The notes under the pieces were generated by a model. That model did no database searches, was not told the DNA's origin, and worked only from the letters and a program-made list of their open reading frames with translations. A stretch of 54,933 nucleotides of DNA from a virus (Duplodnaviria > Caudoviricetes), in the IMG/VR virus record IMGVR_UViG_3300011440_000025, positions 1-54,933 of that record; one strand, 5' to 3'. Below are positions 11 through 54,933 of the stretch, piece by piece. The position numbers and the translations under genes were made by a program. Each line of letters opens with the position of its first letter. The stretch's first letter is position 1.

Positions 11-1342
11 ATGGAACTAACCAAGAATCAGAAACAGATCTTTAACCTTACCGAAACTACTAACGATAATGCTTTGGTATTAGGTAAGCCAGGTGTCGGC
101 AAGTCAGTATTAATAAACGAGCTCACGATGATGGGTAACAAGTCCTATACTTTAGGAGCACCAACTGGATTAGCAGCTCTTAATATAGACGGAAGGACAC
201 TGCACTCCATCTTCAAGATTCCTGTAAGCGATGGTATTATACACCCTACCTATAACAAATATCCTACAGAGATGGATAGGGCACATGGGTTTATTAAATT
301 TCAACTCAGGACTCTTATTATAGATGAGATTAGTATGGTCCGTTGCGATATAATGGATTACATAGATCGCTGCTTAAGACATGTTAAAGGAGACGACAGG
401 CCGTTTGGAGGAATCCAAGTTATAGCATTCGGTGACTTCTATCAATTGCCTCCAGTAGTAAAAGGATACTATGACCTGAACGCTTTAAAGTTAGCTGGAT
501 ACAAGTCTCCGTTTATGTTTGACTCTAGAGTATACAGGGAAGGTGGTTTTCAAACTCGTATGCTAAACGAAGTGCTAAGACAGAAGGGTGATCCGGATTT
601 TATTGACTTACTAGATTATGCAAGGGATGGAAACGTACCACAGAAAATGCTTACTAAGTTGAATAAGTTAGTCGGCCAGCCTTACGATATTCGTATAAGG
701 TTATGTGCGACTAATAAGCAAGCGGATATAGTAAATCAAAGTTATCTTGATATGATTCCGGAACCACCAGCTATCTTCTACGCAGAAAAGTTTGGAGAGT
801 GGCCGGCTAACCCAGCTCAAGATCAACTCACGCTTAAGATAGGAGCGCAGGTTATGGTTAAAAAGAATAGGGCAGACAAACCTCCACATCTACGTGGAGA
901 ATTTGAATCTAGGATAGTAAATGGAACGCTGGGCATAGTAACTGAAATCCATGATGCCCCAAGAGACGCTGAAGATTTTGATACAGAGCAGTGGGTGCGT
1001 ATTAAAACAAACGATGGACTTGAAGCTAAGATATATACGTCCAAGTGGGAACGTAAGAAAAAGGAACAGGACATAGATGGTAAGTGGACTGAACGAGTTG
1101 TAGCTTGGTATATTCAAATGCCATTACAATTAGCTTGGGCTATAAGTATTCATAAGAGCCAAGGGCAATCGTTCGATCTTGTCCATATAGACTCTAATAG
1201 GATATTCGCACCTGGTCAACTCTATGTGGCGTTATCAAGATGTAGATCGATGGCAGGTATCTCCTTGGAGACTCCAGTAACCTATAAACAATTCATGACA
1301 GACAGAGACGTAGTAAATTTCTTTAACTTAATAACCGTATAA
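11..1342 (+). CDS. Pif1/RecD-like SF1B DNA helicase
   Basis: GKPGVGKS Walker A, IIDEISM, FGDFYQLPPV, QMPLQLAWAISIHKSQGQS, GQLYVALSR. Confidence 0.93.
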   Translation: MELTKNQKQIFNLTETTNDNALVLGKPGVGKSVLINELTMMGNKSYTLGAPTGLAALNIDGRTLHSIFKIPVSDGIIHPTYNKYPTEMDRAHGFIKFQLRTLIIDEISMVRCDIMDYIDRCLRHVKGDDRPFGGIQVIAFGDFYQLPPVVKGYYDLNALKLAGYKSPFMFDSRVYREGGFQTRMLNEVLRQKGDPDFIDLLDYARDGNVPQKMLTKLNKLVGQPYDIRIRLCATNKQADIVNQSYLDMIPEPPAIFYAEKFGEWPANPAQDQLTLKIGAQVMVKKNRADKPPHLRGEFESRIVNGTLGIVTEIHDAPRDAEDFDTEQWVRIKTNDGLEAKIYTSKWERKKKEQDIDGKWTERVVAWYIQMPLQLAWAISIHKSQGQSFDLVHIDSNRIFAPGQLYVALSRCRSMAGISLETPVTYKQFMTDRDVVNFFNLITV

Positions 1343-2159: not shown

Positions 2160-2388
2160 AAACGCATACTCCAAACATTGGAAAGACATGCCAGAGTTTA
2201 AACAAAACGATCTTAGACCTATTAAACAAATTCTTGTATCTTTTGCTACACCTGAAAGCATTGTAAAATTTAGTAAGCTGGTTGGACAGAAGGTTCTTAA
2301 GGATACCCAAAGTATATGGTATCCTCAAGTACCTAATGTACCGCTTATGAATAAAAGATGGACAGACTCTAAACCTAAGAAGAAATGA
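2137..2388 (+). CDS. Small protein of the type found beside phage TET-associated glycosyltransferase/ParB clusters
   Basis: W-x-x-MPEF-x-Q...IxVxF...FxKLVGQ...SIWYP pattern, recalled from such clusters. Confidence 0.6.
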   Translation: MSKKISSENAYSKHWKDMPEFKQNDLRPIKQILVSFATPESIVKFSKLVGQKVLKDTQSIWYPQVPNVPLMNKRWTDSKPKKK

Positions 2389-2984
2389 TAACCCACGACC
2401 ACAAGTTAATTTTTATACACATACCCAAGTGTGCTGGTAGAAGTATAAGCGATGCGTTTAACCAAAGATTCGATCACTTTACAGCTCGCCACTACGCTAC
2501 GGAATATCCTGAATGCTTTCACGAATATACTAAGTTTACAGTTGTCCGTAATCCATACGATAGGTTAGTGTCGCTCTTCCATTATATTAAGGAGCACCGC
2601 AGGCATTCCACAGAATCCATCTACTGCGGTATGGATTTTAAAACGTGGTTAATCAGAAATATGATAGCCTATACTAGAGAGGCAAAGAAGGACTCTCCAG
2701 AATTGGAACGCGGAACAGACGGACAAGTAGGTAGTCCATTTCAATTCGCATCCCAGCAAAGTTTTTTAGGTACTTGGGAGAAACAATTTCTGGTATTCTT
2801 TTTTGAAGATATGAAAGCTGTAGCGACCTTCCTAGAAGAAAAAGGGAATGCTAAGCTAGGGCATTTAAATTCTTCTAAGCATCATTTTTGGATGGAGTAT
2901 TACGACTTGGAACTATGTGAGTTATGTCGATACTTCCCACCTATAGTAACTGATTGCAAAGCGTTTAACTATAAGCTACTATGA
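2385..2984 (+). CDS. Sulfotransferase (Sulfotransfer_2-like, PAPS-dependent)
   Basis: 5'-PSB motif FIHIPKCAGRS and 3'-PB motif FTVVRNPYDRLVS. Confidence 0.88.
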   Translation: MITHDHKLIFIHIPKCAGRSISDAFNQRFDHFTARHYATEYPECFHEYTKFTVVRNPYDRLVSLFHYIKEHRRHSTESIYCGMDFKTWLIRNMIAYTREAKKDSPELERGTDGQVGSPFQFASQQSFLGTWEKQFLVFFFEDMKAVATFLEEKGNAKLGHLNSSKHHFWMEYYDLELCELCRYFPPIVTDCKAFNYKLL

Positions 2985-4090
2985 AGTATGATTATCTTAT
3001 AGTAGGAGCTGGAGTATTTGGATGTACTTTCGCACATGAGGTGACTAAGCATGGTTATAAGTGCCTAGTCATAGACCAGCGTAATCACTTAGGTGGTAAT
3101 ACTTACTGCCTAGACATTAATGGTATACCTATCCATAACTATGGAGCACACATCTTCCATACGAATAGTGAGCTCTTATGGAAGTATGTTAATCAGTTTA
3201 CTCGTTTCGAGCCGTTTGTTAACTCTCCATTAGCTATGCGAAACAATAGGTTATACAATCTACCATTTAATATGAATACGTTCTATCAGATATGGGGTAT
3301 CGCTGATCCGGAAAAAGCAAGGCAACAAATAATAAGTGAACTAACGGATTATATAAACCCCATTAACTTAGAACAGCAATCCACTAACTTGGTAGGCACT
3401 ACACTCTATAATTTAATTATCAAAGGCTATACCCAAAAACAATGGGGCAGACCGTGTACGGAATTACCTCCATTTATTATCAAGCGCTTACCTATACGCT
3501 ATACCTTTAATAATAATTACTTTAACGACTACTATCAGGGTATACCAGAACAAGGATACAATCCAATGATTCAAGGGATGCTAAAGGATATTCCATACGA
3601 ACTTGGGACACCCTATACTAAAGGACATGATTATAATTGTAAAAAGATAGTATACACAGGATCGCTGGATGAATACTTCGAATACTGTTACGGTGTACTT
3701 CAATACCGCTCTCTAGAATTTGAGCACCATGAGACGTATACAAAGAACCATCAAGGAACTCCAGTTATAAATTATGGAGATGTGCAGATCCCTTATACCA
3801 GGTCCATTGAACATAAACACTTCTATAGGCAATTCACTAATAATAGTAGTGTAGTTTCAAAGGAGTTTCCGATAGAATGGTCGCTGGGCAAAGAAAGGTA
3901 TTACCCAATCAACGATACCAATAACCAAGTATTGTTTTTAAAGTATACGCAACTTGCGGATAAAGAAACGAACGTAATTTTTGGAGGACGTCTTGCCGAG
4001 TATCACTACTACGATATGCATCAAGTTATTGCCTCAGCTCTCAAAGCAGCCCATAAAGAAACCAACACACGCTATGAAATGCAATACTAA
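2981..4090 (+). CDS. glf: UDP-galactopyranose mutase
   Basis: FAD motif YLIVGAGVFG, YGAHIFHTN, GYTQKQWG, RYYPIN, GRLAEYHYYDMHQVI. Confidence 0.95.
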   Translation: MKYDYLIVGAGVFGCTFAHEVTKHGYKCLVIDQRNHLGGNTYCLDINGIPIHNYGAHIFHTNSELLWKYVNQFTRFEPFVNSPLAMRNNRLYNLPFNMNTFYQIWGIADPEKARQQIISELTDYINPINLEQQSTNLVGTTLYNLIIKGYTQKQWGRPCTELPPFIIKRLPIRYTFNNNYFNDYYQGIPEQGYNPMIQGMLKDIPYELGTPYTKGHDYNCKKIVYTGSLDEYFEYCYGVLQYRSLEFEHHETYTKNHQGTPVINYGDVQIPYTRSIEHKHFYRQFTNNSSVVSKEFPIEWSLGKERYYPINDTNNQVLFLKYTQLADKETNVIFGGRLAEYHYYDMHQVIASALKAAHKETNTRYEMQY

Positions 4091-4298
4091 ATTTGCTGGA
4101 TGTTTTAACCAGGAATGTTTAAAAGATTTTACATGTAAAGATTCTCTAAGAGATGATTTATATAGCTACTCCAACGATGAAATTATATTCAAGGCCTTGC
4201 TAGGTAACAAGAATCCATACGTTGAAGAATTGGCTAAACGATTTAAATCATTTACTAACAGTACTAAGGAAAACAATAAAAAGAAAAAGAAAGTATGA
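4074..4298 (+). CDS. Hypothetical Cys-containing protein
   Basis: Start moved to ATG 4074 (MKCNTK...); fills the gap between glf and the next gene. Confidence 0.5.
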   Translation: MKCNTKFAGCFNQECLKDFTCKDSLRDDLYSYSNDEIIFKALLGNKNPYVEELAKRFKSFTNSTKENNKKKKKV

Positions 4299-5116
4299 AT
4301 CCAAGCTATCCAGTATATATAATAAGTAAGGGCAGGTGGGAGAGTCGGTACACCGCCAAGACATTAGACTATATGAAAGTGCCCTATAGAATTGTTGTTG
4401 AACCGCACGAGTATCTTAAATATGCCGCAGTTATCAATTCCAAAAAGATATTGGTACTACCTTTTAAAAATGTAGGGTGTCCTATACCAGCTAGAAATTG
4501 GGTATGGGAACATAGCATTGCTGAGGGCCATAAGCGCCATTGGATACTCGATGATAACATAAGCTACTTCTTTAGGCTCAACCATAACATGAAGATACCC
4601 GTGGACTCTGGTACCATATTTAAAATATGTGAGGAGTTTACAGATCGCTACACGAACATAGGTCTTAGCGGTATGCAGTATTTTATGTTTGCTAGTCGTA
4701 AGGCAAAACAAAATCCGTTTATATTAAATACACGAATCTATTCTTGTATATTAGTAGACAACTCATTACCTTTAAGATGGAGAGGTACATATAATGCAGA
4801 CACTGATCTAAGCATACGAGTATTACAGTCAGGATTATGTACCGTATTATTCCAAGCCTTCCTATGTGGTAAGATGCAAACGATGACCGTAAAGGGTGGT
4901 ATGACGGACTCCCATCTTAATAATGGTAGATTGAAAATGGCAGAGTCACTTAAGAGGCAGCACCCAAAGCTAGTTACTATAAAAGATAAGTTTGGCCATC
5001 CCCAACATGTAGTTGACTATAGCGCATTTAAGGATAACAAACTTATTTTTAAAAAAGGAATTAATATAAAAGACGGAATAAACAATTATGGACTTGAACT
5101 AATTAAACTACACTAA
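4295..5116 (+). CDS. TET-associated (TAGT/GREB1-like) GT-A glycosyltransferase
   Basis: YPVYIISKGR, IVVEPHEY, ARNWVWEHS, HWILDDNI, RIYSCIL, WRGTYNADTDLS, KGGMT. Confidence 0.85.
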   Translation: MNPSYPVYIISKGRWESRYTAKTLDYMKVPYRIVVEPHEYLKYAAVINSKKILVLPFKNVGCPIPARNWVWEHSIAEGHKRHWILDDNISYFFRLNHNMKIPVDSGTIFKICEEFTDRYTNIGLSGMQYFMFASRKAKQNPFILNTRIYSCILVDNSLPLRWRGTYNADTDLSIRVLQSGLCTVLFQAFLCGKMQTMTVKGGMTDSHLNNGRLKMAESLKRQHPKLVTIKDKFGHPQHVVDYSAFKDNKLIFKKGINIKDGINNYGLELIKLH

Positions 5117-5120
5117 ACCC

Positions 5121-6833
5121 ATGGGAAATTTTATAGCAGTAGACATCGAAACAACCGGACTCCATCCGATACCTGGTAAGTCAAAGATATTTTGCATTAC
5201 TCGTAACGATGGAAAAAGAATGACGCTCCACGAAAACATAAAAGATATACAGCACGAGTTGGAAGATCCATCTATTATTAAAATAATTCATAATGCAAAG
5301 TTTGATTGCCTCTGGTTAAAACGAATGCATGGAATAACAGTAACTAATATATGGGACACGAGAGTAATGGAACAAGTTATACTGGGAGAGAATTTACCAC
5401 GGCGTGAAAAAAACGTCGAAAAATTAAAGGAGCTCAGTTCGTCTCTTCTATGGACACTCCAGCGGTATGGTTTACCAGCACTCGAAAATAAAGAAATGGG
5501 AAAGTCATTTACTGAACGTCCTATAGATAAACCACTTACACAAGCTGAACGAGATTATGCTATAAACGACGTGCGCCATCTTCCTCAATTAATGGTAGCT
5601 CAGATAAGTAGAATACAAAAGCTTGGACTACAGAAGGTAGCTGCCCTTGAAAATAAGTTAGTTGAAGTACTTGTCGATATGGAGGACAGGGGCATTGGCT
5701 TCGATAAGAGTATTTGGTTGGGTATAGCGAGACAATATACACAGGAATCAAAAGACTTATTAAAACGACTACCATCTGATGTTGCTAACTGGGACAGCCC
5801 ATCGCAAGTAAAAAAATACTTTGCTAAGCAAGGGGTGTTAATAGAATCCTATAACGAGCTTGAAGAGTTGGGTCCACGATACAATAATCCTATACTAAAT
5901 AAGTTTATTGAATACCGCGCATACTATAAAAACTTAACAACTTATGGAAGTAGTTGGTTAGTAGATGATGAGAAAGGTAGTACATTAGATCCTGATGGGA
6001 GAGTCAGAACACGTTATGAGCAAGTAATGAATACAGGTAGGTTATCTTCAGCCCATCCCAACCTACAACAAATTCCCGCAAACACTTTACACCGCACCGC
6101 TTTTATACCTAAGAAAGGACACGCGTTTATTATCGCAGATTTTAGTAACCAAGAAATCGGTATAGCAGCTGCCGCATCCAAAGAGAAGATATGGATAGAT
6201 ACTTTATTAAGGAGAGATGATATACATAGTCTTACAGCAAGTATAATATATCCAGAGAGATGGGCAAAGGGAAAAGAAAAAAAGTGCGCCTTTCCTAAAA
6301 AATGTAAATGCCCACATCACTTAGCTCAACGACAAGATGGAAAAGTATTTAATTTTAAAATACTGTATGGCTCTGGACCTAAATCTATTGCCGAGTATTT
6401 ACAGATACCATACTATGACGGGGTGGCTGTACTAAGTAAATTCAAAAGAGTCGTTCCATCCCTCACAAATTGGTTAAACACTAACGTAAAGAATAGCATT
6501 AAAGAAAGGATATCATATAGTGCAGATAAGTATAGACGTAGGCGGACGTTGAGGGATCCAGAAGATTGGATGGTCAGAACAGTAGCCATGAATAACCCTA
6601 TTCAAAGTTGTGGCGCTAACATGATCAAGCTAGCGATGGTATCACTTCCTAAAGGAGCACCTATAGTATTATCAGAACATGACTCGCTTGTTCTAGAGGT
6701 ACCCAAGAAAGATGTGAAGAAGTGGTCGAAGATACTCAAAACGACTATGGAAAAGGCAGCTGACCATTGCACAGATATAGTTGGTTTAATAGAGGCAAAA
6801 CCAAGAGAGGCATATAATTTACTTAAAGACTAA
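5121..6833 (+). CDS. polA: Family A DNA polymerase with 3'-5' exonuclease domain
   Basis: Exo I DIETTG, Exo II HNAKFD, Exo III YAIND; TGRLSSAHPNLQQIP; motif A ADFSNQE, motif B RQDGKVFNFKILYG, motif C EHDSL. Confidence 0.95.
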   Translation: MGNFIAVDIETTGLHPIPGKSKIFCITRNDGKRMTLHENIKDIQHELEDPSIIKIIHNAKFDCLWLKRMHGITVTNIWDTRVMEQVILGENLPRREKNVEKLKELSSSLLWTLQRYGLPALENKEMGKSFTERPIDKPLTQAERDYAINDVRHLPQLMVAQISRIQKLGLQKVAALENKLVEVLVDMEDRGIGFDKSIWLGIARQYTQESKDLLKRLPSDVANWDSPSQVKKYFAKQGVLIESYNELEELGPRYNNPILNKFIEYRAYYKNLTTYGSSWLVDDEKGSTLDPDGRVRTRYEQVMNTGRLSSAHPNLQQIPANTLHRTAFIPKKGHAFIIADFSNQEIGIAAAASKEKIWIDTLLRRDDIHSLTASIIYPERWAKGKEKKCAFPKKCKCPHHLAQRQDGKVFNFKILYGSGPKSIAEYLQIPYYDGVAVLSKFKRVVPSLTNWLNTNVKNSIKERISYSADKYRRRRTLRDPEDWMVRTVAMNNPIQSCGANMIKLAMVSLPKGAPIVLSEHDSLVLEVPKKDVKKWSKILKTTMEKAADHCTDIVGLIEAKPREAYNLLKD

Positions 6834-6835
6834 AT

Positions 6836-7621
6836 ATGAAATATCCAATTTACATTCCATCTAAAGGAAGGGCAGATAACCAAAAAACAGTTAAGCTGCT
6901 CGAAGAAAACAATATCAAGAACTACAAGGTGGTAGTTGAAGAAAACGAGTATAGTAAGTACAACGAGTTTATTAGTGTTCGGAACCTTCTGAGGTTGCCC
7001 AGCTCCAACTATGGAACAGTATCCGTTGCTCGCAATTATGCTATAGAGCATTCAAAAAAGATGGGGTACACAAAGCATTGGCAACTGGATGATGACATAG
7101 GAAAAATATACCTACATGATAAAGGTAAGGTAATCCATGAAGATATAAACAAGGTGCTTTCGGATATAGAAAACACCCTAGAGAAAAAACAATTAAGTCC
7201 TATATTACTTGCTGGACTTACCACATCTGCATCCTTCTTAGCGAGTAAAACAAAGGACTATACGTTGAACACATCCCTAACTTCGTGTGTTCTTATAACT
7301 AATACACCGTTGAGGTTCCGTATAAAGATGCTAGAAGATACAGACTATCAACTACGCATACTTAAACAAGGCGGTTCCATATTAAAATTTAATAACTACG
7401 CATTTGCATACACGACTCAGCTAAAACAAATTGGAGGCTACACTAGCATATATAACGATACGGCTAAACGCATGGAAGGTTTGAAAGAATTTTTAGATCT
7501 GTATCCTGAAGTGTCTCCGGAAATTATTAAAAAGCCAAACGGTATGCTTAAGATTAAAAACATACGATTCGTATGGGCAAAATATAAAAAGAATAATCAA
7601 ATTTTACTTAAACATCTATAA
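6836..7621 (+). CDS. Second TET-associated (TAGT/GREB1-like) glycosyltransferase
   Basis: YPIYIPSKGR, ARNYAIEHS, HWQLDDDI, EDTDY, GG motif; paralogous to 4295-5116. Confidence 0.8.
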   Translation: MKYPIYIPSKGRADNQKTVKLLEENNIKNYKVVVEENEYSKYNEFISVRNLLRLPSSNYGTVSVARNYAIEHSKKMGYTKHWQLDDDIGKIYLHDKGKVIHEDINKVLSDIENTLEKKQLSPILLAGLTTSASFLASKTKDYTLNTSLTSCVLITNTPLRFRIKMLEDTDYQLRILKQGGSILKFNNYAFAYTTQLKQIGGYTSIYNDTAKRMEGLKEFLDLYPEVSPEIIKKPNGMLKIKNIRFVWAKYKKNNQILLKHL

Positions 7622-7623
7622 AC

Positions 7624-8253
7624 ATGAAAAAATCAAACATTATTTGGGACTGCATTAAAGTAAGTGTACCTAAGATTAAACCAACGCCTAACAATTTTAA
7701 ACTCTTCGATGAGGAAGGGGCTGCGGTATTCCGGAACTCACTTGACTCATTTGGTAAGGCAGGTTCAGTTATTATTAATAAGGACTACACATTGATTGAT
7801 GGCAATACTAGGTGGAAGGATGCAGTAGAAAACAAAGAGAAATTTCTTTGGGCTTCTATTCCATCACGACTGCTTACGGCCAAAGAGTTCAACGTCATGT
7901 CGGCCATATTCGATAGGGCACGTGCTGGACAAGTAGATACCCTACGCATAAGTGAAGAGTGGTCAAATCAGAAGGGTAATACGAAGTCTTTTTTCAAAGC
8001 CTGGGGTATACCAATGCCTGAAGAAGTATTAAAGAAACTTGAGGATATGGAGAATGGAGTAATCACCCCGGACAAAAAGAAGATAACCGAAAAAGAAATA
8101 CATGATGTGGACGTGATGCCTATTACATTAATTTTTACACCGGCCGAACACAAGAAGTATATGGAGATAGCAGAATCATTATACAAACGTTTTAAGGTTG
8201 ATAATGTCACCGATCTTACAATGAAAGCGATGATCTATGTCAAAAAAAATTAG
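7624..8253 (+). CDS. ParB/Srx N-terminal domain protein
   Basis: IKPTPNN...SLDSFG...VIINKDYTLIDGNTRW resembles the ParB-N GxxR motif. Confidence 0.75.
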   Translation: MKKSNIIWDCIKVSVPKIKPTPNNFKLFDEEGAAVFRNSLDSFGKAGSVIINKDYTLIDGNTRWKDAVENKEKFLWASIPSRLLTAKEFNVMSAIFDRARAGQVDTLRISEEWSNQKGNTKSFFKAWGIPMPEEVLKKLEDMENGVITPDKKKITEKEIHDVDVMPITLIFTPAEHKKYMEIAESLYKRFKVDNVTDLTMKAMIYVKKN

Positions 8254-12052: not shown

Positions 12053-12129
12053 GGTCTATGGGGATGCAGGGTGTGTCCGTCTGCCTGTCACGCAGAAGAT
12101 TCAGATGGGTTCGATTCCCATATAGACCG
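12053..12129 (+). tRNA. tRNA-Asp (GTC)
   Basis: Acceptor GGTCTAT/ATAGACC, D stem GGAT/GTCC, anticodon arm TCTGC-CTGTCAC-GCAGA, T arm ATGGG-TTCGATT-CCCAT, discriminator G; no encoded CCA. Confidence 0.88.
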
Positions 12130-12153
12130 CGAAACATTTTAAACAACTATCCA

Positions 12154-13881: not shown

Positions 13882-14595
13882 ATGAAACAGCTTAAACTAA
13901 TTTTAATTTTATCCCTATTCACAATGTCGACGTATGCGCAAGTTGGGTATAAGATTGGAGAGGTAACACGATGGTGGACGCCTAAACATATTCAAGTAAC
14001 GGATGGGCTAACGGTCAAATATAAATTATATAATGGATATGATACAGCGTATCGTTATAACATTGGACCGGACCCGGATACATTTGATGTGGTAGTTACA
14101 TTTAAGAAACGATTACCACCAGCACCCAAGCCTGATTTAGTTTCTGTAATGGATGATTATACTATAGTACCGAACCAAACTTACTTGCCTGCTACTAGGT
14201 TAAGTGATAACGTTTATAGTTCAACAGCGTGGGCGCATATGAAAGGACAAACATGGAATGCAAATCATTATGCAAATACCGTATCTTTTGTAGAGGGCAT
14301 ACAGGTAGGAGCATACGTTGAATTAACTTGCGTTTGTTATAAGGTAGAATGGTGGGGTGAGCGTAGAAATAATCATGGTATAGTTTCTATTACAACGGAT
14401 GGTGGAGCAATAGCAAACGTTGATACATACGGACCCAATACAGATAATCCTTCAACATTATTTTGGACAAGTGCAGCTGCACCAGTTAATGGTACGCATA
14501 AATTTCGGGTAACGTATACGGGCACAAAAAATCCTGCGTCTACTTCATTTAGTATTGTGCATGATAAATGGGTTATCTATACTAAGCAGCCATGA
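13882..14595 (+). CDS. Secreted protein with a carbohydrate-binding-like beta-sandwich
   Basis: Signal peptide ending TYA|Q; C-terminal domain similar to the N-terminal domain of 36812-38905. Confidence 0.7.
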   Translation: MKQLKLILILSLFTMSTYAQVGYKIGEVTRWWTPKHIQVTDGLTVKYKLYNGYDTAYRYNIGPDPDTFDVVVTFKKRLPPAPKPDLVSVMDDYTIVPNQTYLPATRLSDNVYSSTAWAHMKGQTWNANHYANTVSFVEGIQVGAYVELTCVCYKVEWWGERRNNHGIVSITTDGGAIANVDTYGPNTDNPSTLFWTSAAAPVNGTHKFRVTYTGTKNPASTSFSIVHDKWVIYTKQP

Positions 14596-45648: not shown

Positions 45649-46055
45649 CACTGCTGCCGACACTTATTGAATCTTGGCTAGATCGTAAAGGAGAAAAGAA
45701 GCAAGGAAAAATAAAGGACACTATCTGGTTAACAGTTGGTAGTGTCCTTTATATTATGGTTACTTGGAAAATTTTTAATCAGAATCCATTTATCATACTT
45801 GCTTATATCCTTATGTGGCGAGTAACCTTGTTTGATTACCTGACGAATTTTATGTTGAAGAAGTTTAGCGATGGGCATAAGCAAATTAATATTTGGAAGT
45901 ATACTGGTACGACTACATTTTGGTGGGACCAGCTAACGAGTAAGATAGATTGGAGATGGAGATTGATTTTTAGAATAGTGATCCTTGCCGCAGGTGTGAG
46001 TCATCTGATACTTCCTTTCCCATACGATATATATGGAATACATATAAACCATTAA
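45630..46055 (+). CDS. Membrane protein
   Basis: About three TM segments; FDY..N...W.Y.G. Confidence 0.6.
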   Translation: MVYKILTLLPTLIESWLDRKGEKKQGKIKDTIWLTVGSVLYIMVTWKIFNQNPFIILAYILMWRVTLFDYLTNFMLKKFSDGHKQINIWKYTGTTTFWWDQLTSKIDWRWRLIFRIVILAAGVSHLILPFPYDIYGIHINH

Positions 46056-46527
46056 TGATCCGCATGGTCTTTGCTCCTTTACAAAACATCTTATCAAATG
46101 TTTTCTTTCCATCAATAACTTTCTCTTGAAACTTATTCTTTTCCCAATAAGATTTTTTAAAGAGCATGTAGAATCCTGCAACCATAGGAATATCCGCACA
46201 TAGTTGTTTACTACATAAATGTTTAGCGTGAACAATCTGGTCCCATATATCCCCACTCCTAAAAAGATCAGGGGCAGTTGTTTCCCATCTCTCTTCTATC
46301 TGCCATAGGTATCCTGACCGATTAGTATATGCACCAAAGATATCCGTATCTGGATAATTTATAATAGCATTTTCAATAACACGATTACTATCTTTGCAAA
46401 GTATCATTGCGTCCTGATCTAAAAGTTGTATCCATTCATATGGACTCGCAGCGCAGTGATCATTAAGCACACGACCAAATTGATTTGGATCTGTACAGAA
46501 AGGTTGTATTCTAAAAATGTCTATCAT
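45970..46527 (-). CDS. GT-A-like glycosyltransferase
   Basis: WIQLLDQDAM (DxD), AGFYMLFKK..W, GLYVFH.YR; start reassigned. Confidence 0.65.
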   Translation of the reverse strand: MIDIFRIQPFCTDPNQFGRVLNDHCAASPYEWIQLLDQDAMILCKDSNRVIENAIINYPDTDIFGAYTNRSGYLWQIEERWETTAPDLFRSGDIWDQIVHAKHLCSKQLCADIPMVAGFYMLFKKSYWEKNKFQEKVIDGKKTFDKMFCKGAKTMRIINGLYVFHIYRMGKEVSDDSHLRQGSLF

Positions 46528-46528
46528 A

Positions 46529-46723
46529 TTATTTTTTCTTTCTTTTAGTTTTAGATTTAAGTTTGGGTTCACCGTCTGGCTTTGCCCAATTCATCCTAGC
46601 CAATTCTTCTATTGGTTGATTAAACATATAAAGAACATCTAACTTAGCAAGTTCCTCTATGGATTGTGGGGACAATGATGCAATCCATTTGTCTCGTTTA
46701 ATTTTAAATTCTTCTGGTGTCAT
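46529..46723 (-). CDS. Hypothetical protein
   Basis: Start MTPEEFK with ATGA overlap. Confidence 0.55.
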   Translation of the reverse strand: MTPEEFKIKRDKWIASLSPQSIEELAKLDVLYMFNQPIEELARMNWAKPDGEPKLKSKTKRKKK

Positions 46724-46821
46724 ACTACAATAATTAATATAATTAACAATAATACTATTACCCAAAGCACCGCATTGATATTCTTAAGCATCGTTGCGAT
46801 TGTTTTCATATCCTCTTCCAT
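46720..46821 (-). CDS. 33 aa single-TM peptide
   Basis: MEEDMKTIATMLKNINAVLWVIVLLLIILIIVV; fills the gap. Confidence 0.45.
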   Translation of the reverse strand: MEEDMKTIATMLKNINAVLWVIVLLLIILIIVV

Positions 46822-46822
46822 A

Positions 46823-47842
46823 TTATAGTTTTTTAATTTCGTGTTTATACGCCTTGAATGCCGACTCTCTATGGATACCGACCACATATGTTTCCTCTTC
46901 ACAACGATCAGACTCTGGCCATATCTCAAATACCTTAAGGACAATTCCTTTCGAGTTAATTACGATGTCCCCTTTATTAATTTCTCGAATAGGTTCCGGG
47001 TTGCTATTACTATCCAAGAACCCTATCTCATTAGCAGGTGTCATACAGTAGTTTAAGAATACGTATGGGTGCATAAGATTTATGGACCTGATTAACATAG
47101 GTTGATAAGCGTTCATAAGTAAGCCTAGTATGGATTGATCATGACGGTGCCCCATCTTCTTATCTTCTTCAGCTTGCCAGAAACTAAAGTCACCCTCTAT
47201 CTTACTATTTGCTGGACCCATAGCACAACACTTGTCAATACTATTCCAATATAACCACTCGTTAACAAGTAACTGGCTCTTAGCATTCTTTCTTATTATA
47301 AACATACCTGAGGCGCACTGAAATGATCTTCGATACTTTTCCATATGCATAGTATTGATGCAAAGTTCAGTAGTAAAGTTTTCGTGGGTATGGATACCAA
47401 GAGCATGAGTTGACTTAGTACGGTTATCCCAATTAACAAATGGTGCTATGATACCTCCACAATTATCCAGTAGCGTATCTAGGTTATGGATATCTGGTCG
47501 CTTCAAGTGATTACGGTCACCTCCTATAAAATCCATAGTCCACATTTCCGGAGAGCAGTCTTGATATATAAGTATATCTCCTTCATCGATCTTCTTAAGT
47601 GCTTCAGAGATTGCGAACGGTTTATATGCTCTGCCGTTTCTTGCTGGATCAACATGGTCAAGGAGAGTTCTATTTTGTTTATAGAAGTCCGTGTCTATTA
47701 TATCATCCCAGCAAGGCATATAAAATTCGTCTATAAGCTGGAACGGTCGTAAGAGTTCTATCATATTCAATTGTGTCTTACGATAGATTCCACCTTTTCT
47801 ACCCATACGATCATCTGATACTGTTACTAATATTGTCTTCAT
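46823..47842 (-). CDS. Putative glycosyltransferase (HRHDQS type)
   Basis: YKPFAI..AL, GDILIYQD, W...W, HRHDQSIL. Confidence 0.65.
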   Translation of the reverse strand: MKTILVTVSDDRMGRKGGIYRKTQLNMIELLRPFQLIDEFYMPCWDDIIDTDFYKQNRTLLDHVDPARNGRAYKPFAISEALKKIDEGDILIYQDCSPEMWTMDFIGGDRNHLKRPDIHNLDTLLDNCGGIIAPFVNWDNRTKSTHALGIHTHENFTTELCINTMHMEKYRRSFQCASGMFIIRKNAKSQLLVNEWLYWNSIDKCCAMGPANSKIEGDFSFWQAEEDKKMGHRHDQSILGLLMNAYQPMLIRSINLMHPYVFLNYCMTPANEIGFLDSNSNPEPIREINKGDIVINSKGIVLKVFEIWPESDRCEEETYVVGIHRESAFKAYKHEIKKL

Positions 47843-48525
47843 ATACTTCCTTTTCTCCTCATATAATAAACTGTTTCTTGCTTAGTTTGTTTTGCCTTAT
47901 CCAGCATCGATTCTCCTGGTGCATGCTTTCTATAATAAAATAATATCTCTGGTATGGTATGAATCTTATATCCATACTTTGTTGCTCTTAACCAGAACTC
48001 CCAATCCTCATACCCTTGTCTCATTAGTTCATCGTATCCACCTAAGTTCCACCACATCTTACGAGAAAACAACGAGCAACAATTAAGACGGTTTGTTATA
48101 CGTAAGTCTTCCCATGTAGGAGATGGATGTGGCTTACTTACTCTAGTATATTGTCCAAAGGTTTCAAGATACGTTGATATAATATCACGCTCTCTATACT
48201 TATATTGTGCTACCATCTTTTCTATACAGGTAGGATGGATTTTATCATCGGCGTCCAGCGGTAACACTAAACCATCATCTTCTGGTATTGCACATATTCC
48301 GGTGTTACGAGTTGCGGCAAGTCCCCTATTACGTGGATGATGGATTATGGGTATGTCCAAATAATTCACGTACTCAGAAATAAACTTACCTTCAAGTAAT
48401 TCTGTAGAGCAGTCATCTACTATAATAATTTCTATGTTCTTATAGGTTTGTGCTCTTACAGAATCTATAGCTTCAGCTATATATTTGTAATGGTTATAAC
48501 AGGGTATAACTACTGTTACTTTCAT
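47839..48525 (-). CDS. GT2-family glycosyltransferase
   Basis: VVIPCYN, EIIIVDDCS, NRGLAATRN, LDADD, GGYDE...YEDWEFWLR. Confidence 0.92.
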   Translation of the reverse strand: MKVTVVIPCYNHYKYIAEAIDSVRAQTYKNIEIIIVDDCSTELLEGKFISEYVNYLDIPIIHHPRNRGLAATRNTGICAIPEDDGLVLPLDADDKIHPTCIEKMVAQYKYRERDIISTYLETFGQYTRVSKPHPSPTWEDLRITNRLNCCSLFSRKMWWNLGGYDELMRQGYEDWEFWLRATKYGYKIHTIPEILFYYRKHAPGESMLDKAKQTKQETVYYMRRKGSI

Positions 48526-48686
48526 ACATAGATAAATGTTAAGGTTACTTGATTATCATACTGCCCTTGACTCTGAGTTGTAAAAAGTATTTGGATACTA
48601 TTTAAACTTTCAAACCATTCGGTAACATCCCTTTCTATTTGATATGCACTACCTGCAAATGTTTTTACTCTTATTGTTTTTTCCAT
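48522..48686 (-). CDS. 54 aa hypothetical protein (not in the ORF track)
   Basis: MEKTIRVKTFAGSAYQIERDVTEWF...; fills the gap and has an ATGA overlap with the GT2 gene. Confidence 0.55.
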   Translation of the reverse strand: MEKTIRVKTFAGSAYQIERDVTEWFESLNSIQILFTTQSQGQYDNQVTLTFIYV

Positions 48687-50278
48687 GGCCATGTATTTAT
48701 TTCTTGTCTAAGTTCGTCTTTTGTAAGTGCTTTGATTCTACGTAGCTCTTGATCATTTGCCTTAAAGTGTCTATGGGTATTAAGACTATTAGGACCAGTC
48801 CAGTGATTAAGATGATACATATTATTCCCAAGAACTCTTTCAATGCGATAACCCAATTTTTCAAACCGATACATACGTTCAACATCTTCTGCACCATAGC
48901 TAATAAAGTTTTCATTTTCCATTCCTCCATCTATAAACGATTCTTTGTTAAAGCCTACTGCTCCACCAAGACTTACTACGTCACTAGTATTCATTCCATT
49001 AAATCTTGTATCGCCAACTAGTCCAACGTCCCCGTCATAGTCTCTTATCTTTTCAAACCATGTGTTACGTGGCATACGAGCGAACGCCCACTTATAAGGA
49101 TAGACCATATCCGCACCACTACGTAACATCTCTACTGCCTGTAGTATTTGTAATGGAGCAATAAAAACATCTACGTCCCAATTAAAGATATATCTGCGAC
49201 TTGTATTACGAGCCATATTGTTTAATGCTTTCGTCCTATGCATTACTGGAGTGTACATAAGATCATAGCGATGGCAATAGAAGTGTCCCTTATCTTGTAG
49301 GTAAGTCAGCTTTGGTTCATGGTCATACATCTCAGTTACATACACCTCAGCATCTTCAAAGTACCTGTGGAAAAATCGTAGGAGTATTTTAAGATTTTCT
49401 TCACGGTCTTGGTGGTCGTAGTATACTGGAATTTGAAAACTAACATCGATTAATTTTATTTTTTTGTCCTGTCTATCGGTATCCCGTTGGTGATTAAACT
49501 TATAGTAGTTGGGTGGATAATAATCCTTGATATCATTTTTACGCAACAACTGTCCATTGAAATGATGGACAGGTCTTATAATTGTTTTATGTAGTGCGGT
49601 TGAAAGATATGAACCCCACCAAGAGAAAGTAGAATTACCAATAATAAAATCATCACACTGAGACATAAGGCAGATATCTTCAATATCAGAATTGTTTTCT
49701 GAGAAGGTAACATTAGGCAGACAACCGAAATGGTTACGGCAATAAGGTATGTCGTCTGAGAAGATAATAATGTCCCGTTCTTTCCAGTCATCAAAAAATT
49801 CAATAAGCGCCCTGTAATAGTAACCAATAACTGGAAGCAAATGATAGTTAGGATTCCCCACGTAATCCCCACGGCGTATGGATAACGCAATTGGATTGAG
49901 CTTAGTATCAAACTTAATTGTTTGCTTAACACGCTCCACGAACTCTTTCTTAAAGGTAAGCGCACTACGTACTTCTTTTTCATAGTCTTGCCAATATTTA
50001 TATGATTGCAAATATCCGTATACATCTACTTGATCGTTATCACGAATCGCTGGCCAATCAGGTACGTAACTAAAAGTTGTTTCCTTTACTTCACGTCCCC
50101 ATAGATCATCTTCGTTACCTACTGGAAACTCTCCTTCAAAATACTCTGCACATTTCCATGCAGGTAACTTAAGATGGGCACCGAATTTTTTACTGATTCC
50201 TATCATACTTGCATATTGAAACAACTGGTTGCCTAGCCTACCATTGTTTCCAAATGATGTCATTGTTATTTGTTTCAT
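48671..50278 (-). CDS. Fusion of GT11 alpha-1,2-fucosyltransferase-like and GT2/GT7-C galactosyltransferase-like domains
   Basis: GRLGNQLFQYA, IRRGDY, FSDD, NSTFSWWG; then DREENL, WDVD, GGA, GMENENF.SYGAED.ER. Confidence 0.85.
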   Translation of the reverse strand: MKQITMTSFGNNGRLGNQLFQYASMIGISKKFGAHLKLPAWKCAEYFEGEFPVGNEDDLWGREVKETTFSYVPDWPAIRDNDQVDVYGYLQSYKYWQDYEKEVRSALTFKKEFVERVKQTIKFDTKLNPIALSIRRGDYVGNPNYHLLPVIGYYYRALIEFFDDWKERDIIIFSDDIPYCRNHFGCLPNVTFSENNSDIEDICLMSQCDDFIIGNSTFSWWGSYLSTALHKTIIRPVHHFNGQLLRKNDIKDYYPPNYYKFNHQRDTDRQDKKIKLIDVSFQIPVYYDHQDREENLKILLRFFHRYFEDAEVYVTEMYDHEPKLTYLQDKGHFYCHRYDLMYTPVMHRTKALNNMARNTSRRYIFNWDVDVFIAPLQILQAVEMLRSGADMVYPYKWAFARMPRNTWFEKIRDYDGDVGLVGDTRFNGMNTSDVVSLGGAVGFNKESFIDGGMENENFISYGAEDVERMYRFEKLGYRIERVLGNNMYHLNHWTGPNSLNTHRHFKANDQELRRIKALTKDELRQEINTWPWKKQ

Positions 50279-50610
50279 GTTATAGAAAACTTTTTTAAGT
50301 TCTGTGCTTTAGCAAATGTTACTTCATCTAACTTACTAAGGTATACTGGACCTAGTATTAGTATAGGATTATTTTCATCATCCCATTGGCAAGTAAATCC
50401 TGCTTTACATTCTTTAAATGCTTGTAACGTAATCGTTTCTTTATCTCCTATTATTGCGCTATCAACAATATTATTTTTTGTTGGGTATCCATCGTGTAGA
50501 CATACAGTTGTTATTTTAAGTGTAGCTAAAATAGAAGTGTCTTTATTAAGACGTTCTATAAAGTCATCATGACCCCTTGGTTTATCTCCGTAGTTTAACA
50601 TGGTTCGCAA
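50275..50610 (-). CDS. Hypothetical protein
   Basis: 111 aa; in operon. Confidence 0.6.
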   Translation of the reverse strand: MRTMLNYGDKPRGHDDFIERLNKDTSILATLKITTVCLHDGYPTKNNIVDSAIIGDKETITLQAFKECKAGFTCQWDDENNPILILGPVYLSKLDEVTFAKAQNLKKFSIT

Positions 50611-51227
50611 ACTAAAATTTTATCCTTATACAATATTCCATCTTCAAGCTGTTCATTCCAAAGACTAAACTTATAATCGAATGGGAAAGCATAATTAATA
50701 AAGCCAGCAAACTTAAGAGCGCTGTTTATATCCTGGTCATCAATAATAATAAGATGGCGATGGATTGTCTTATAGGTAATATCACTAATCACTTTTAATT
50801 CTCTCTCCAATATATTGTCCTGAGAAAATTCCATGTTACCTTGCATAAGTTCAGCGTGACCACCAGTATTGGGTCCGGCAGGATGTGCGTCCAGAAATAT
50901 TACGGAGTTTTTATTTGCTCGCTCCAGCATTAATGGTAACATATCGTATGACTTACCTAAATGAATTTCGGCCATAGTATATTTTAATCGCATAGCCACT
51001 ACGAATGGTTCATAAATATCCACACTATAAATATGTTTATACCCAGCGAGTAGTGCTCTCCTTATAGACTCACCCATAGCAGTTCCAGTTTCTACATAGG
51101 TATCACTGAACTCTAAGTAGTCTAAGATATTAAATAGTTTTCCTGTTTTAGTTATCATATCTTCTTTAGTTGGTTCTGGTAAATTTTCTTCAAGATTTCC
51201 TGTTACTCTTGTCTTTGGTATTTTCAT
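50595..51227 (-). CDS. Class I SAM-dependent methyltransferase-like protein
   Basis: YVETGT..G, GKS...L, IFLDAH, IIIDD. Confidence 0.7.
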   Translation of the reverse strand: MKIPKTRVTGNLEENLPEPTKEDMITKTGKLFNILDYLEFSDTYVETGTAMGESIRRALLAGYKHIYSVDIYEPFVVAMRLKYTMAEIHLGKSYDMLPLMLERANKNSVIFLDAHPAGPNTGGHAELMQGNMEFSQDNILERELKVISDITYKTIHRHLIIIDDQDINSALKFAGFINYAFPFDYKFSLWNEQLEDGILYKDKILVCEPC

Positions 51228-52739: not shown

Positions 52740-53407
52740 AATCCTTTTTCTTTTTGTTTTACCCAGTAATCTTCTATGGACATAAGCTCTCCATAGTTCT
52801 TATACCACCACAATAGGAACTCAAGTTCTTTTGCCGCTGCTTTCTCCTGCTCCTTAAATTCATTCGAAGATATAATATATATGCTATGGGGTGGAAACTT
52901 ATCAACAAAGATAAAGTAAAACTCTTTTAGCTTTTCCATTTGCTTATATACAAAACTTTGCTTTGGGTATCCATATGCTAATGCTCTATTCTTACAGTCG
53001 AGAAACGTCTTGGCAGTAGTGGTCTTTATATCGGAACCTATACGTGGTGCTGGCTGATAAATATCTAATATGTAACTCATCTCCACTCCAAATAATTCTC
53101 CATACTTCTTATCTTCACATACTGAATTTACCATCAATCGTTTTACTACGCTATTCGAATTCATTTTCTTAAGCATGGATTCAATCCGTTTCTTTTCCTC
53201 TTCTGATAATAATGCATAGCTTTCATACTTATCTTCTAGGAAACGTTCATGCAATGCTTTACCAAAGATAAAATGTTTCTCTTCTGGATCTGATGCTGGA
53301 ATACATAGAAGATCGTTTTTAATTTTATTACAGTGCGAGTAACTACTATTCTTTGGTACTGGTCCAGTAATTATATTATGTTTTTTAAGATAGTCTACAA
53401 GTTTCAT
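52736..53407 (-). CDS. PD-(D/E)XK exonuclease (RecE/ExoVIII-like)
   Basis: SSYS, FGKALH, LD...DIKTT, Y..Q...Y, F.FIFVDK.PP; start reassigned to MKLV. Confidence 0.75.
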   Translation of the reverse strand: MKLVDYLKKHNIITGPVPKNSSYSHCNKIKNDLLCIPASDPEEKHFIFGKALHERFLEDKYESYALLSEEEKKRIESMLKKMNSNSVVKRLMVNSVCEDKKYGELFGVEMSYILDIYQPAPRIGSDIKTTTAKTFLDCKNRALAYGYPKQSFVYKQMEKLKEFYFIFVDKFPPHSIYIISSNEFKEQEKAAAKELEFLLWWYKNYGELMSIEDYWVKQKEKGL

Positions 53408-53426
53408 TATACTTTGTTTAAACAGT

Positions 53427-53455
53427 AAAAGAGGTCGGCTACCACACCGACCTCT
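53427..53455 (-). terminator. Intrinsic terminator-like hairpin after the SSB-like gene
   Basis: agaggtcgg/ccgacctct 9 bp stem followed by a short T run on the - strand. Confidence 0.55.
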
Positions 53456-53489
53456 ATAACTAACCAAATAATAAGTAACGGATCAACCC

Positions 53490-54077
53490 TTACTTCTTGC
53501 CCTTTCCTTTTGCTGCTGTCTTTGCTTTCTTACCACCATCTGCTCCTGCTTTCCAATCTGGATACTCTTCAGAAGATGAGATTTTGTTTTTGTCGTAATC
53601 TCCTAGTGCATTAAAGTCATCCATAGTATATGCTTCGTCCAAGAAGAAACTACGAGTTGGAAGTGTTCCCTTGAGTATCTTAGTTCCTTTAGGTAGGGCA
53701 GATATGTTTGTTATATTCGAATAAGTAGCGGAACCATCTTCTGCTTCTTTCTCCGATATAGTTACAAACGCTGGCTTACCAGCCAGTCCTTCGAAATCAA
53801 AGTCCTCTAAATTTTTAATACCTAACCAAGCTTTAATATCTTTTGCTAGGTTTGCTTTCTTACCTACGCTGAACGTATAGGTTTTGTAATTTACGAATGC
53901 GTCCCCGTTTTCTTTCTTAACTCCAAGAATTTCAAACGCTACATTAAGCGTGTTTCTTTTTGTAGGCTTACCCTTGTATGAACCTGATTGCGTGCCCCAA
54001 TGAATTGGTCCTAAACAAATTGATTGGTACACTCCTTCTGGGGTTTGTTCTGCGGGTGCTGCTTTTGGTGCTTTCAT
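53490..54077 (-). CDS. Putative phage ssDNA-binding protein (OB-fold)
   Basis: PEG.Y...C......GTQ, YT.S...KANL...I..W.G, YSNI..I..LPKG; next to the exonuclease. Confidence 0.6.
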   Translation of the reverse strand: MKAPKAAPAEQTPEGVYQSICLGPIHWGTQSGSYKGKPTKRNTLNVAFEILGVKKENGDAFVNYKTYTFSVGKKANLAKDIKAWLGIKNLEDFDFEGLAGKPAFVTISEKEAEDGSATYSNITNISALPKGTKILKGTLPTRSFFLDEAYTMDDFNALGDYDKNKISSSEEYPDWKAGADGGKKAKTAAKGKGKK

Positions 54078-54933
54078 TTTTTGTAAAGTTTAAATTAAGT
54101 TTATGTCCTACCTTATAGACTCTCTATAAAGTGACGGTATAAATTTACCTCTATTATATAGGGTATAGAATAGGCTATCTAAGGAAGGTCTAAAACTCCT
54201 TATAATTCCTTAAAGGAATTTAAAACTAAAACCTTAGTTTTCAGGCCGTTTTTAGGACTCCTAAACTAGCCTATATATAGAGTCCCTAAAGCTATTAGAG
54301 GACTCTAGGGGAAACGTAGGCTTTTAGCCGACTCTATATATAGGCTAATTTTCGCTATCGCCTAGAGTCCTTATATAGAGTCCTCGAAACGTTTAAAATT
54401 CCTTATAATTCCTTTTAGACTCTAAAAAGACTCTTTATATTTGTCCTACCGTTTAGGGCGTAAACGATTCGAAAACTAAAGATTTAGTTTTCAGCTTTGA
54501 AAGTCTTAAGTTTAATAACTCCGAAATCTAGGAGACACCGAAACTCGTTGCGAAACTATCTTAATAGTCACGTCGTTAGACGTCTCTCAAACCGGCCCCT
54601 AGCTTAGTAGTTAAAACCGATAGACATTTAATTAGTCCCTTTTAGGATAAAGTCTTTCCTGCTACCTTAAATCTTTAGGTAACAATTAATTTCTTCCTTT
54701 ATAGTCTTTATTAGTATAGCGGTAATATCTAGTTATAAGAAACTATACTATTTAAAGTTAAAAGAATCGCGTGAAGCGAATAACTATAGAACGTAAGTCA
54801 ATACGCTAAGAAGAAATTAAATAGCGGTGAAGTTTAAAGACTATCTTAAAAAACTAGCGGTGAGAATTCCGCAACTCCTGCTCGCGAAAATCCGATAAAC
54901 AGAATTTTATAAACTCTTTAGTCGTAGATAGAA
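54078..54933. promoter_or_regulatory. Long non-coding control region (operators, GACTC array, inverted and direct repeats)
   Basis: No ORF of 60 aa or more; palindromes at 54222 and 54472; 18 bp perfect inverted repeat 54267-54284/54330-54347; 21 nt direct repeat 54191/54394. Confidence 0.75.
54436..54443 (+). promoter_or_regulatory. Bacteroidota primary-sigma -7 box TAnnTTTG
   Basis: TATATTTG in the non-coding region; -33 element not convincing. Confidence 0.55.

Follow-up and report, generated by a model that had tools for sequence, protein, structure and literature searches.

Selected exclusion of the CA/TG step from the two early control regions of a 55-kb Caudoviricetes phage

Vertebrate CpG islands are the familiar case of a local dinucleotide island on regulatory DNA that is sharply unlike the bulk of its genome. 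In phages, selection is known to remove short words that are read by DNA-acting enzymes, phiX174 being described as devoid of GATC (PMC5014478), and divergent early or immunity control regions are known in which divergent operons and palindromic operators common to two regions go together with strain mosaicism. A third line of work concerns DNA modification: PMC13229309 describes post-replicative phage T-dioxygenases with sequence preference, one of them ParB-dependent and preferring NTG, then NTA, and for the 5mYOX176/ParB176 system its authors suggest site-selective, epigenetic-like roles. Here we describe a control region that resembles each of these systems in part and is nearly free of the dinucleotide CA and its complement TG. 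It lies in the virus record IMGVR_UViG_3300011440_000025 (Duplodnaviria; Caudoviricetes), whose entire 54,933 bp form the window analyzed here, and it spans positions 54078-54933 together with 1-10, an 866-bp divergent intergenic region that we refer to as R.

The differences from the known systems are as instructive as the likenesses. The logic of CpG islands is inverted, since here the island is the part without the dinucleotide while the bulk of the genome keeps it, and the dinucleotides in excess in R, CG and TA, are the transition neighbours of CA and TG. CpG islands stem from methylation-driven mutation, whereas R was shaped by selection, because synonymous sites are normal. Avoidance of the phiX174 type concerns whole genomes and words of 4-6 bp; in contrast, a dinucleotide is avoided here in about 1.1-1.3 kb of control DNA. 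The divergent control regions of other phages are not known to exclude a dinucleotide, and only a weak candidate for a ribbon-helix-helix (RHH)-like regulator is present here. Short-word avoidance is thus known for whole phage genomes, but its near-complete, selected form in control DNA alone was not found in the ~2.2 Mb compared below, and our literature search, with supplementary motif data outside its scope, returned no precedent for local dinucleotide exclusion from control DNA.

The depletion of CA/TG in R is real and extreme. A sequence-only reading of this DNA had counted by hand about 20 steps in 833 nt and three in 54121-54480, against roughly 95 and 40 expected. Both counts proved exact by program (CA 10 + TG 10 = 20 at 54101-54933; three in the most depleted core, 54121-54480) and the expectations were close to those computed from local base composition, 93.6 (observed/expected, o/e, 0.21) and 40.5. 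The full region of 866 nt holds 22 CA/TG where 96.3 are expected, and the count was 68 or more in every one of 20,000 shuffles (z = -9.75), so that the deficit persists after base-composition correction; it also persists in sliding dinucleotide odds ratios. Among 5,084 windows of the same length (866 nt) elsewhere in the genome the lowest count was 81. The step is not avoided throughout the genome, where its o/e is 1.02-1.05, and coding sequence uses it freely (o/e 1.04), as had been supposed. Sliding windows of 400 nt gave a genome mean of 1.03 (standard deviation 0.15) with only two low zones, one in R with a minimum of 0.13 and one at 1601-2100 with 0.32. The CA/TG deficit in R is the strongest local deficit in the genome among the ten strand-symmetric dinucleotide classes. 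Runs entirely free of CA/TG extend over 200, 110 and 89 nt in R, the first two of them in the core, and over 111 nt in the second zone.

This second control region, R2 (1739-1949), contains 7 CA/TG against 25.6 expected. Low density continues past it to about position 2136 (16 against 46.0 expected) and passes through a doubtful open reading frame (ORF) of 69 codons at 1950-2159. The first half of this ORF is poor in CA/TG; the ORF as a whole carries the TATA-rich motifs of the control region and has no match in the three relatives G001-G003, and it may be no gene.

We compared the window with 240 other viral and metagenomic loci (~2.2 Mb, 21,363 windows) using the same scan. The lowest o/e was 0.64 in 80 unrelated viral loci (703 kb, 6,754 windows), which are 80 of 85 stretches retrieved with the palindrome pattern described below and serve as background only, and 0.54 in 80 metagenomic helicase loci (536 kb, 5,079 windows). 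The 85 pattern matches in viral contigs, a single site in each, were taken as chance. In 80 viral loci that carry TET-associated glycosyltransferase (TAGT) genes (981 kb, 9,530 windows) the minimum was about 0.31; values below 0.5 came solely from the GC-rich phages L153 (28 windows) and L179 (1 window), whose deficits are genome-wide (0.66 and 0.77, respectively) and include no local hole in either case. The longest CA/TG-free run across all 240 loci measured 111 nt. None of the 213 long non-coding regions of the comparison sets lay below an o/e of 0.50, versus 0.21 here, and pooled non-coding values of the three sets were 1.01, 1.04 and 1.02. Apparent holes for other dinucleotides in the TAGT loci L164, L149 and L158 proved to be coding sequence with a skewed composition.

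We then asked whether mutation rather than selection could account for the deficit. Local CpA-to-TpA mutation had been proposed from the sequence, and as a genome-wide pressure it fails: at the synonymous 3-1 codon junction the o/e is 0.92 for CA and 1.01 for TG, and each of the four NCN four-fold families favours its NCA codon, so nothing presses against CA/TG across the genome. Mutation acting in these regions alone is conceivable but unlikely. A natural strain provides a second line of evidence. In a hypervariable patch at 54198-54304 the strain assembled from run X16 differs from the reference by 16 substitutions and 3 indels, and the patch rebuilt by script contains one CA/TG where the reference contains two. 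Three null models predict more: on average 4.4 CA/TG with random bases at the same positions (P = 0.014), 6.9 with random positions (P = 0.0009) and 7.2 with the same change types at random positions (P = 0.0004). As 0 of the 65 new 10-mers of this strain are copied from other modules, its divergence is not gene conversion. The 30-nt end of a variant contig, with 7 mismatches, likewise holds no CA/TG.

The depletion might instead be a by-product of repeated CA/TG-free modules or of mutational bias, with no selection on the dinucleotide itself. Several repeat families are indeed present, and masking all recurring 8-mers weakens the deficit to an o/e of 0.45 (15 against 33.3). The unmasked remainder is still depleted, however (P = 3e-4), and 8-mer recurrence (62%) is near the level of composition-matched surrogates (mean 53%, maximum 66%). 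The X16 strain stays nearly free of CA/TG without module copying, and synonymous sites show no bias. We therefore consider this explanation largely refuted and give it hardly any weight. The shuffles, the X16 strain, the synonymous sites and the 8-mer analysis agree with the initial supposition that the deficit is selected, and we conclude that the depletion in R and R2 is kept by purifying selection and is not mutational.

To see at which level this selection acts, we counted the four NTG trinucleotides in R and extended R2 on both strands. ATG was observed 5 times against 46.3 expected (o/e 0.11), TTG 16 times against 47.5 (0.34), GTG 8 times against 24.4 (0.33) and CTG 9 times against 23.8 (0.38). 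Heterogeneity among them is weak (chi-square 6.67, p = 0.08), and CTG, which is neither a start codon nor a promoter signal, is depleted by itself (P = 5e-4). Other steps deviate in either direction: CG (1.42), TA (1.26) and AG/CT (1.47) are enriched in R, and AT is low (0.70 in R and 0.37 in R2). The regions that precede genes elsewhere in this genome behave mildly, with o/e values of 0.59 for ATG, 1.13 for TTG, 0.81 for TG and 0.78 for CA at -30 to -1 of 69 genes, and the initiation regions of G001 and G002, relatives that lack Shine-Dalgarno (SD) motifs, are alike. Because the loss affects all four NTG and both strands, CA is as rare as TG and initiation regions are mild, the constraint acts on the double-stranded TpG/CpA step itself.

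These counts bear on the idea that R is insulated from host expression signals, TG having been purged from both strands to keep stray promoters and start codons from firing. A Bacteroidota-type host without SD motifs would fit: an SD-like motif precedes just 3 of 72 genes and leaders are A-rich, and TG occurs in ATG, GTG and TTG as well as in both promoter boxes (TTTG and TANNTTTG). ATG is the most depleted trinucleotide, TAG (2.19x) and TAA (1.33x) are enriched in R and extended R2, and the lone perfect -7 box of R stands just upstream of its RNA-covered part. AUG under-representation near Bacteroidetes starts has been published (PMC6847099), the AUG/GAU ratio being given as about 0.6 up to 21 nt from the start codon, and shares with R an SD-less genome and ATG as the most depleted trinucleotide. 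Yet that effect, as reported there, is mild, local and on the sense strand. In R the deficit extends through 866 bp and affects both strands, with ATG at an o/e of 0.06-0.11 and TTG, GTG and CTG at about 0.3-0.4. CTG/CAG is as depleted as GTG and TTG, both strands are equally hit, and RNA-library contigs are missing from the most depleted half. The phage's own initiation regions reach only 0.59 for ATG and leave TTG undepleted, and the pattern recurs in none of the 213 long non-coding regions elsewhere. Insulation is thus an unlikely, though not a negligible, explanation.

R lies between operons that run leftward from 54077 on the minus strand and rightward from 11 on the plus strand. The first leftward gene (53490-54077, minus strand) encodes a protein of 195 amino acids without a family match, and the first rightward gene (11-1342, plus strand) a PIF1/RecD-like helicase, whose start codon is preceded by the final ten bases of R (1-10). 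The sign of the GC skew flips at R and again near 46 kb. Divergent genes, operator-like palindromes and a promoter box bear out the description of this DNA as regulatory: R is the main early control region of the phage, and R and R2 are its two early control regions.

The two regions share a 20-bp palindrome, AAAACTAA-N4-TTAGTTTT, of which the genome holds four copies, two in R and two in R2 and none elsewhere. Only 0.14 copies are expected, and four were reached in 0 of 100 shuffles. The copies in R are at 54222-54241, which is operator-like, and at 54472-54491, and those in R2 are at 1744-1763 (one mismatch) and 1777-1796. Between the two copies in R lies a dyad whose 22-nt left arm (54263-54284), with a TATAGAGTC-type element, is 95% complementary to the 22-nt right arm (54330-54351). 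The core of R also contains four TATAGAGTC-type elements, two CCTTATAATTCC and two GTCCTACC. The sole perfect Bacteroidota-type -7 box in R, TATATTTG, is on the plus strand at 54436-54443 and contains one of the residual CA/TG steps of the core; the consensus is given as TANNTTTG/TAHHTTTG with G at -5 (PMC6847099). All residual core steps (54132, 54242 and 54442), together with the adjacent one at 54492, fall within repeated elements: those at 54132 and 54442 close a repeated AGACTCT-y-TATA...TG element, and those at 54242 and 54492 form the outer edges of the palindromes. In search of a cognate regulator we found only a sub-threshold RHH-like match in the ORF at 1344-1532 (E 0.0066, below the cut-off). 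Scans for sigma-70-type promoters (4 found, 2.2 expected) and for terminators (2 found, 0.8 expected) were uninformative.

Further short elements recur in R. GAGTCC occurs five times within about 130 nt of the core (54255-54383) and 14 times genome-wide, and AGACTCT three times in the control region and nine times genome-wide; these copies could be iterons or operator half-sites. In the right half of R, three plus-strand TG steps at 54770-54865 sit inside GTGA, in short GC-flanked elements that might be tetraloop hairpins or binding sites. Two of the three GTGA belong to TAGCGGTrA copies at 54822 and 54855, and a further copy at 54717 has no TG.

Such an arrangement would also suit a physical constraint. 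No step deforms more readily than CA/TG, and hinge-free DNA may be needed by an origin or a looped repressor complex. The dyad-symmetric core, the four palindromes and the AT-rich sequence are consistent with this, as are the flip of the GC skew, which is seen at origins or divergent promoters, and the low AT step (0.70 in R and 0.37 in R2). Against it, the flexible TA step is enriched (1.26), and the depletion spans 866 bp including the RNA-covered half, which has no obvious arrays of binding sites; our literature search offered no precedent. We hold an architectural cause to be very unlikely.

RNA-library contigs from two libraries cover solely 54463-54896 of the 1,634 nt compared (53300-54933), one contig (X22) reaching from 54463 to 54721 and the other (X21) from 54588 to 54896. 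Their depth is 2.4-3.1, they show neither strand nor ends, DNA carry-over is possible, and the uncovered parts are no evidence of silence. The contigs start 20 nt downstream of the -7 box, and the coverage fits a transcript start near 54448. The minus strand of the covered part folds better than shuffles (z = -3.14), as does R2 (z = -3.42), whereas the plus strand, which is the one downstream of the -7 box, has no folding advantage over shuffles (z = -1.26). RNA folding settles neither strand nor structure. In Rfam, neither the gathering nor a permissive threshold yielded more than a tRNA located elsewhere and noise below threshold.

The deficit could also arise at the RNA level, from a leader or non-coding RNA that is abundant and has to avoid UG or CA, for example because of an RNase preference; base-pairing would then mirror the loss on the other strand. 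That RNA-library contigs from two runs cover this part of the region alone, and that the minus strand of the covered part and R2 fold well, speaks for such a cause. The most depleted half (54078-54462) is without cover, however, the plus strand below the -7 box does not fold beyond shuffles, no credible Rfam match was obtained, and the contigs give no strand or ends. RNA-level selection appears slightly less probable still than an architectural cause.

We next considered the position of R in the virion genome, as R had been taken to be terminal and perhaps first-injected DNA. CheckV rates the record 100% complete and IMG/VR classes it as linear. A contig of run X16 extends 212 letters beyond base 54933; the end of the record is therefore not a molecular end, and we infer circular closure of the genome. 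R is accordingly an internal divergent intergenic region split by the cut point of the record, not a terminal one. The packaging genes (an HNH-like endonuclease, a gp3-like small terminase, TerS, and the large terminase, TerL) are at about 11-17 kb, some 11 kb off, which speaks against the notion of first-injected DNA.

Another suggestion was that exposed, early-acting DNA evades a host defence whose recognition motif is very short and contains TG/CA, such as a nuclease site or a CRISPR protospacer-adjacent motif. Many short restriction palindromes contain CA or TG, and a CA/TG-free stretch excludes every recognition site containing either. TGG/CCA is missing from R altogether (0 against 16 expected), and the zone is hypervariable between strains, as targets of an arms race often are. 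Defence avoidance sits poorly with an exposed remainder of the genome (CA/TG o/e 1.04), with the distance of R from any molecular end and from the genes for TerS, HNH and TerL, and with the abundance in R of other short palindromes, for example CTAG (AG/CT 1.47). Neither a host nor a defence system was identified, since neither close relatives nor prophages were found. Megablast against annotated phages gave no close relative, tblastn a best match of 35%, and a helicase profile only 33-38% identity in metagenome contigs; the helicase and the neighbouring 195-amino-acid gene against viral contigs, the last 34 bases of the window against metagenome contigs and a ParB-like profile against genome contigs likewise returned no close relative. 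We consider host defence an improbable cause.

What remains is the suggestion that TpG/CpA is excluded as the context targeted by an enzyme that acts on phage DNA, likeliest a hypermodification. For a genome of 55 kb, the set of sugar genes (at 2385-8253 and 45970-51227) is unusually large: it encodes a sulfotransferase-like protein, UDP-galactopyranose mutase (Glf), two TAGTs, a GT11/GT7C fusion, a GT2 and one further glycosyltransferase, with a GT-A-like protein and an S-adenosylmethionine (SAM) methyltransferase-like protein as leads only. The TAGT genes are on the plus strand at 4295-5116 (PF20691, E 7e-42) and 6836-7621 (PF20691, E 2.5e-31), and a protein of 209 amino acids with a ParB-like N-terminal domain is encoded directly after the second (7624-8253, plus strand). 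R2 lies just upstream of the operon in question, which encodes a conserved 83-amino-acid protein, the sulfotransferase-like protein, UDP-galactopyranose mutase, TAGT1, PolA, TAGT2, the ParB-like protein and a primase. By the account of PMC13216743, the enzyme with which T2/T6 attach a second glucose to glucosyl-hydroxymethylcytosine belongs to PF20691, and the TAGTs of 288 among 753 TAGT phages are 'solitary' and have no known role.

In such a scheme, the T of TpG would be converted to a hydroxymethyl base by a context-specific enzyme on phage DNA, to which the two TAGTs, along with other glycosyltransferases, would then add sugars. Thousands of bulky adducts would result in coding DNA, while control DNA, which RNA polymerase, regulators and replication proteins must read, would be left unmodified, and the TpG steps retained inside repeated elements could be modification-sensitive switch points. 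The form of the depletion is consistent with this, being dinucleotide-level, local and selected, with enrichment of CG and TA, the transition products of CA/TG. The gene set is compatible with sugar-decorated DNA, and PMC13229309 reports a ParB-dependent precedent in TG context. The likeness to 5mYOX176/ParB176, as that system is described, consists in a phage with TET-associated-family glycosyltransferases, a ParB-like protein and TG as the preferred context.

Several observations weigh against this reading. Neither a TET/JBP enzyme nor another 2-oxoglutarate (2OG) oxygenase, a ThyA-like protein or a C5-methyltransferase was found by hmmscan of 60 ORFs and in six frames, although the six-frame search for TET/JBP (PF12851) had no positive control and the record, being classed as linear, may miss a piece. 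Nothing known in the genome therefore makes a hydroxymethyl or hydroxy pyrimidine or sets a TG context. TET/JBP is also absent among the ten Pfam-annotated clusters of recurrent neighbours (of the 25 largest) at the TAGT loci, and a ThyA search of five further TAGT records was negative while its controls worked; a six-frame TET/JBP search of these five was negative too but, having no positive control, carries no weight here. The ParB-like gene follows PolA in G001, G002 and G003, two of which have no TAGT. TpA, which the published enzyme prefers next, is in excess in R (1.26) and not in deficit. A comparison of related phages with and without the TAGT cluster had been suggested; other TAGT phages lack the pattern: a local CA/TG hole was found in 0 of the 80 TAGT loci, whose pooled non-coding o/e is 1.04 (69 regions), and the nearest relative with TAGT and ParB-like genes, G001 (93% complete), has a divergent intergenic region of 177 nt with an o/e of 0.76 and no hole. 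The deficit is somewhat deeper for ATG than for the remaining NTG (test against uniform depletion, P = 0.016), and this excess loss hints at an added translational component. Finally, the strain comparison consists of one contig at a depth of 3.9.

The present phage thus differs from the 5mYOX176 system in that no dioxygenase was detected here or in relatives and in that the ParB-like gene is linked to PolA and not to TAGT; it differs from both that system and base J in that modification is here a prediction from genes and sequence. No description of motif-free control DNA was found in the literature on such phage dioxygenase systems. Taken together, exclusion of TpG/CpA as an enzyme's target context may be the cause, and we put it forward tentatively. 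Modification is the best single candidate, a possible rather than a probable one, yet it comes without its key enzyme and is not general to TAGT phages. About a quarter of the probability falls to causes outside the readings named here.

A more specific form of the modification reading is doubtful but can be spelled out. A first-step enzyme of an unknown family might mark the T of TpG (or the C of CpA) with a bulky sugar, control DNA would stay clean, and the residual TpGs would let the phage tell packaged (modified) from fresh (bare) DNA. These residual steps, at the end of the -7 box, the palindrome edges and the GTGA elements, would then, with similar doubt, serve a base-J-like epigenetic control.

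If context-specific hypermodification is indeed the cause, such islands would reveal modification contexts from sequence alone. They would also point to modification-sensitive regulation in phages and to an undiscovered first-step enzyme for 'solitary' TAGT phages, with >7,800 homologs. With any other cause, a strongly selected constraint on regulatory DNA would still be unexplained.

Some further observations concern the genes and genomes mentioned above. The 209-amino-acid ParB-like protein belongs to a tight family of 68 homologs at 39-67% identity, and in the three relatives (L011-L018) its gene comes after PolA, with nothing between them in G002 and G003 and with the two TAGT genes intervening in G001. 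Members of the TAGT subfamily are mostly paired, with 137 in 79 loci, and recurrent neighbours at the 80 TAGT loci (L104-L183) are terminase (large, 26 loci), epimerase (9), a clamp-loader-type ATPase and portal. The TAGT phage L153 has a GC content of 66% along with its genome-wide CA/TG value of 0.66, and the distant relative G003 (L017, L018) has an odd global composition of 0.73 for CA/TG, 0.73 for GA/TC, 0.78 for AG/CT and 1.49 for CG. The stretch 53300-54933 is present in 20 DNA runs labelled freshwater sediment or groundwater metagenome, and assemblies repeatedly break inside the control region, which suggests strain microdiversity there. Among the packaging genes, 13882-14595 encodes a protein of 237 amino acids that has no family match and, by eye, a hydrophobic, signal-peptide-like N-terminus, and a tRNA-Asp (anticodon GTC) is located at 12053-12130, just past the small-terminase gene.

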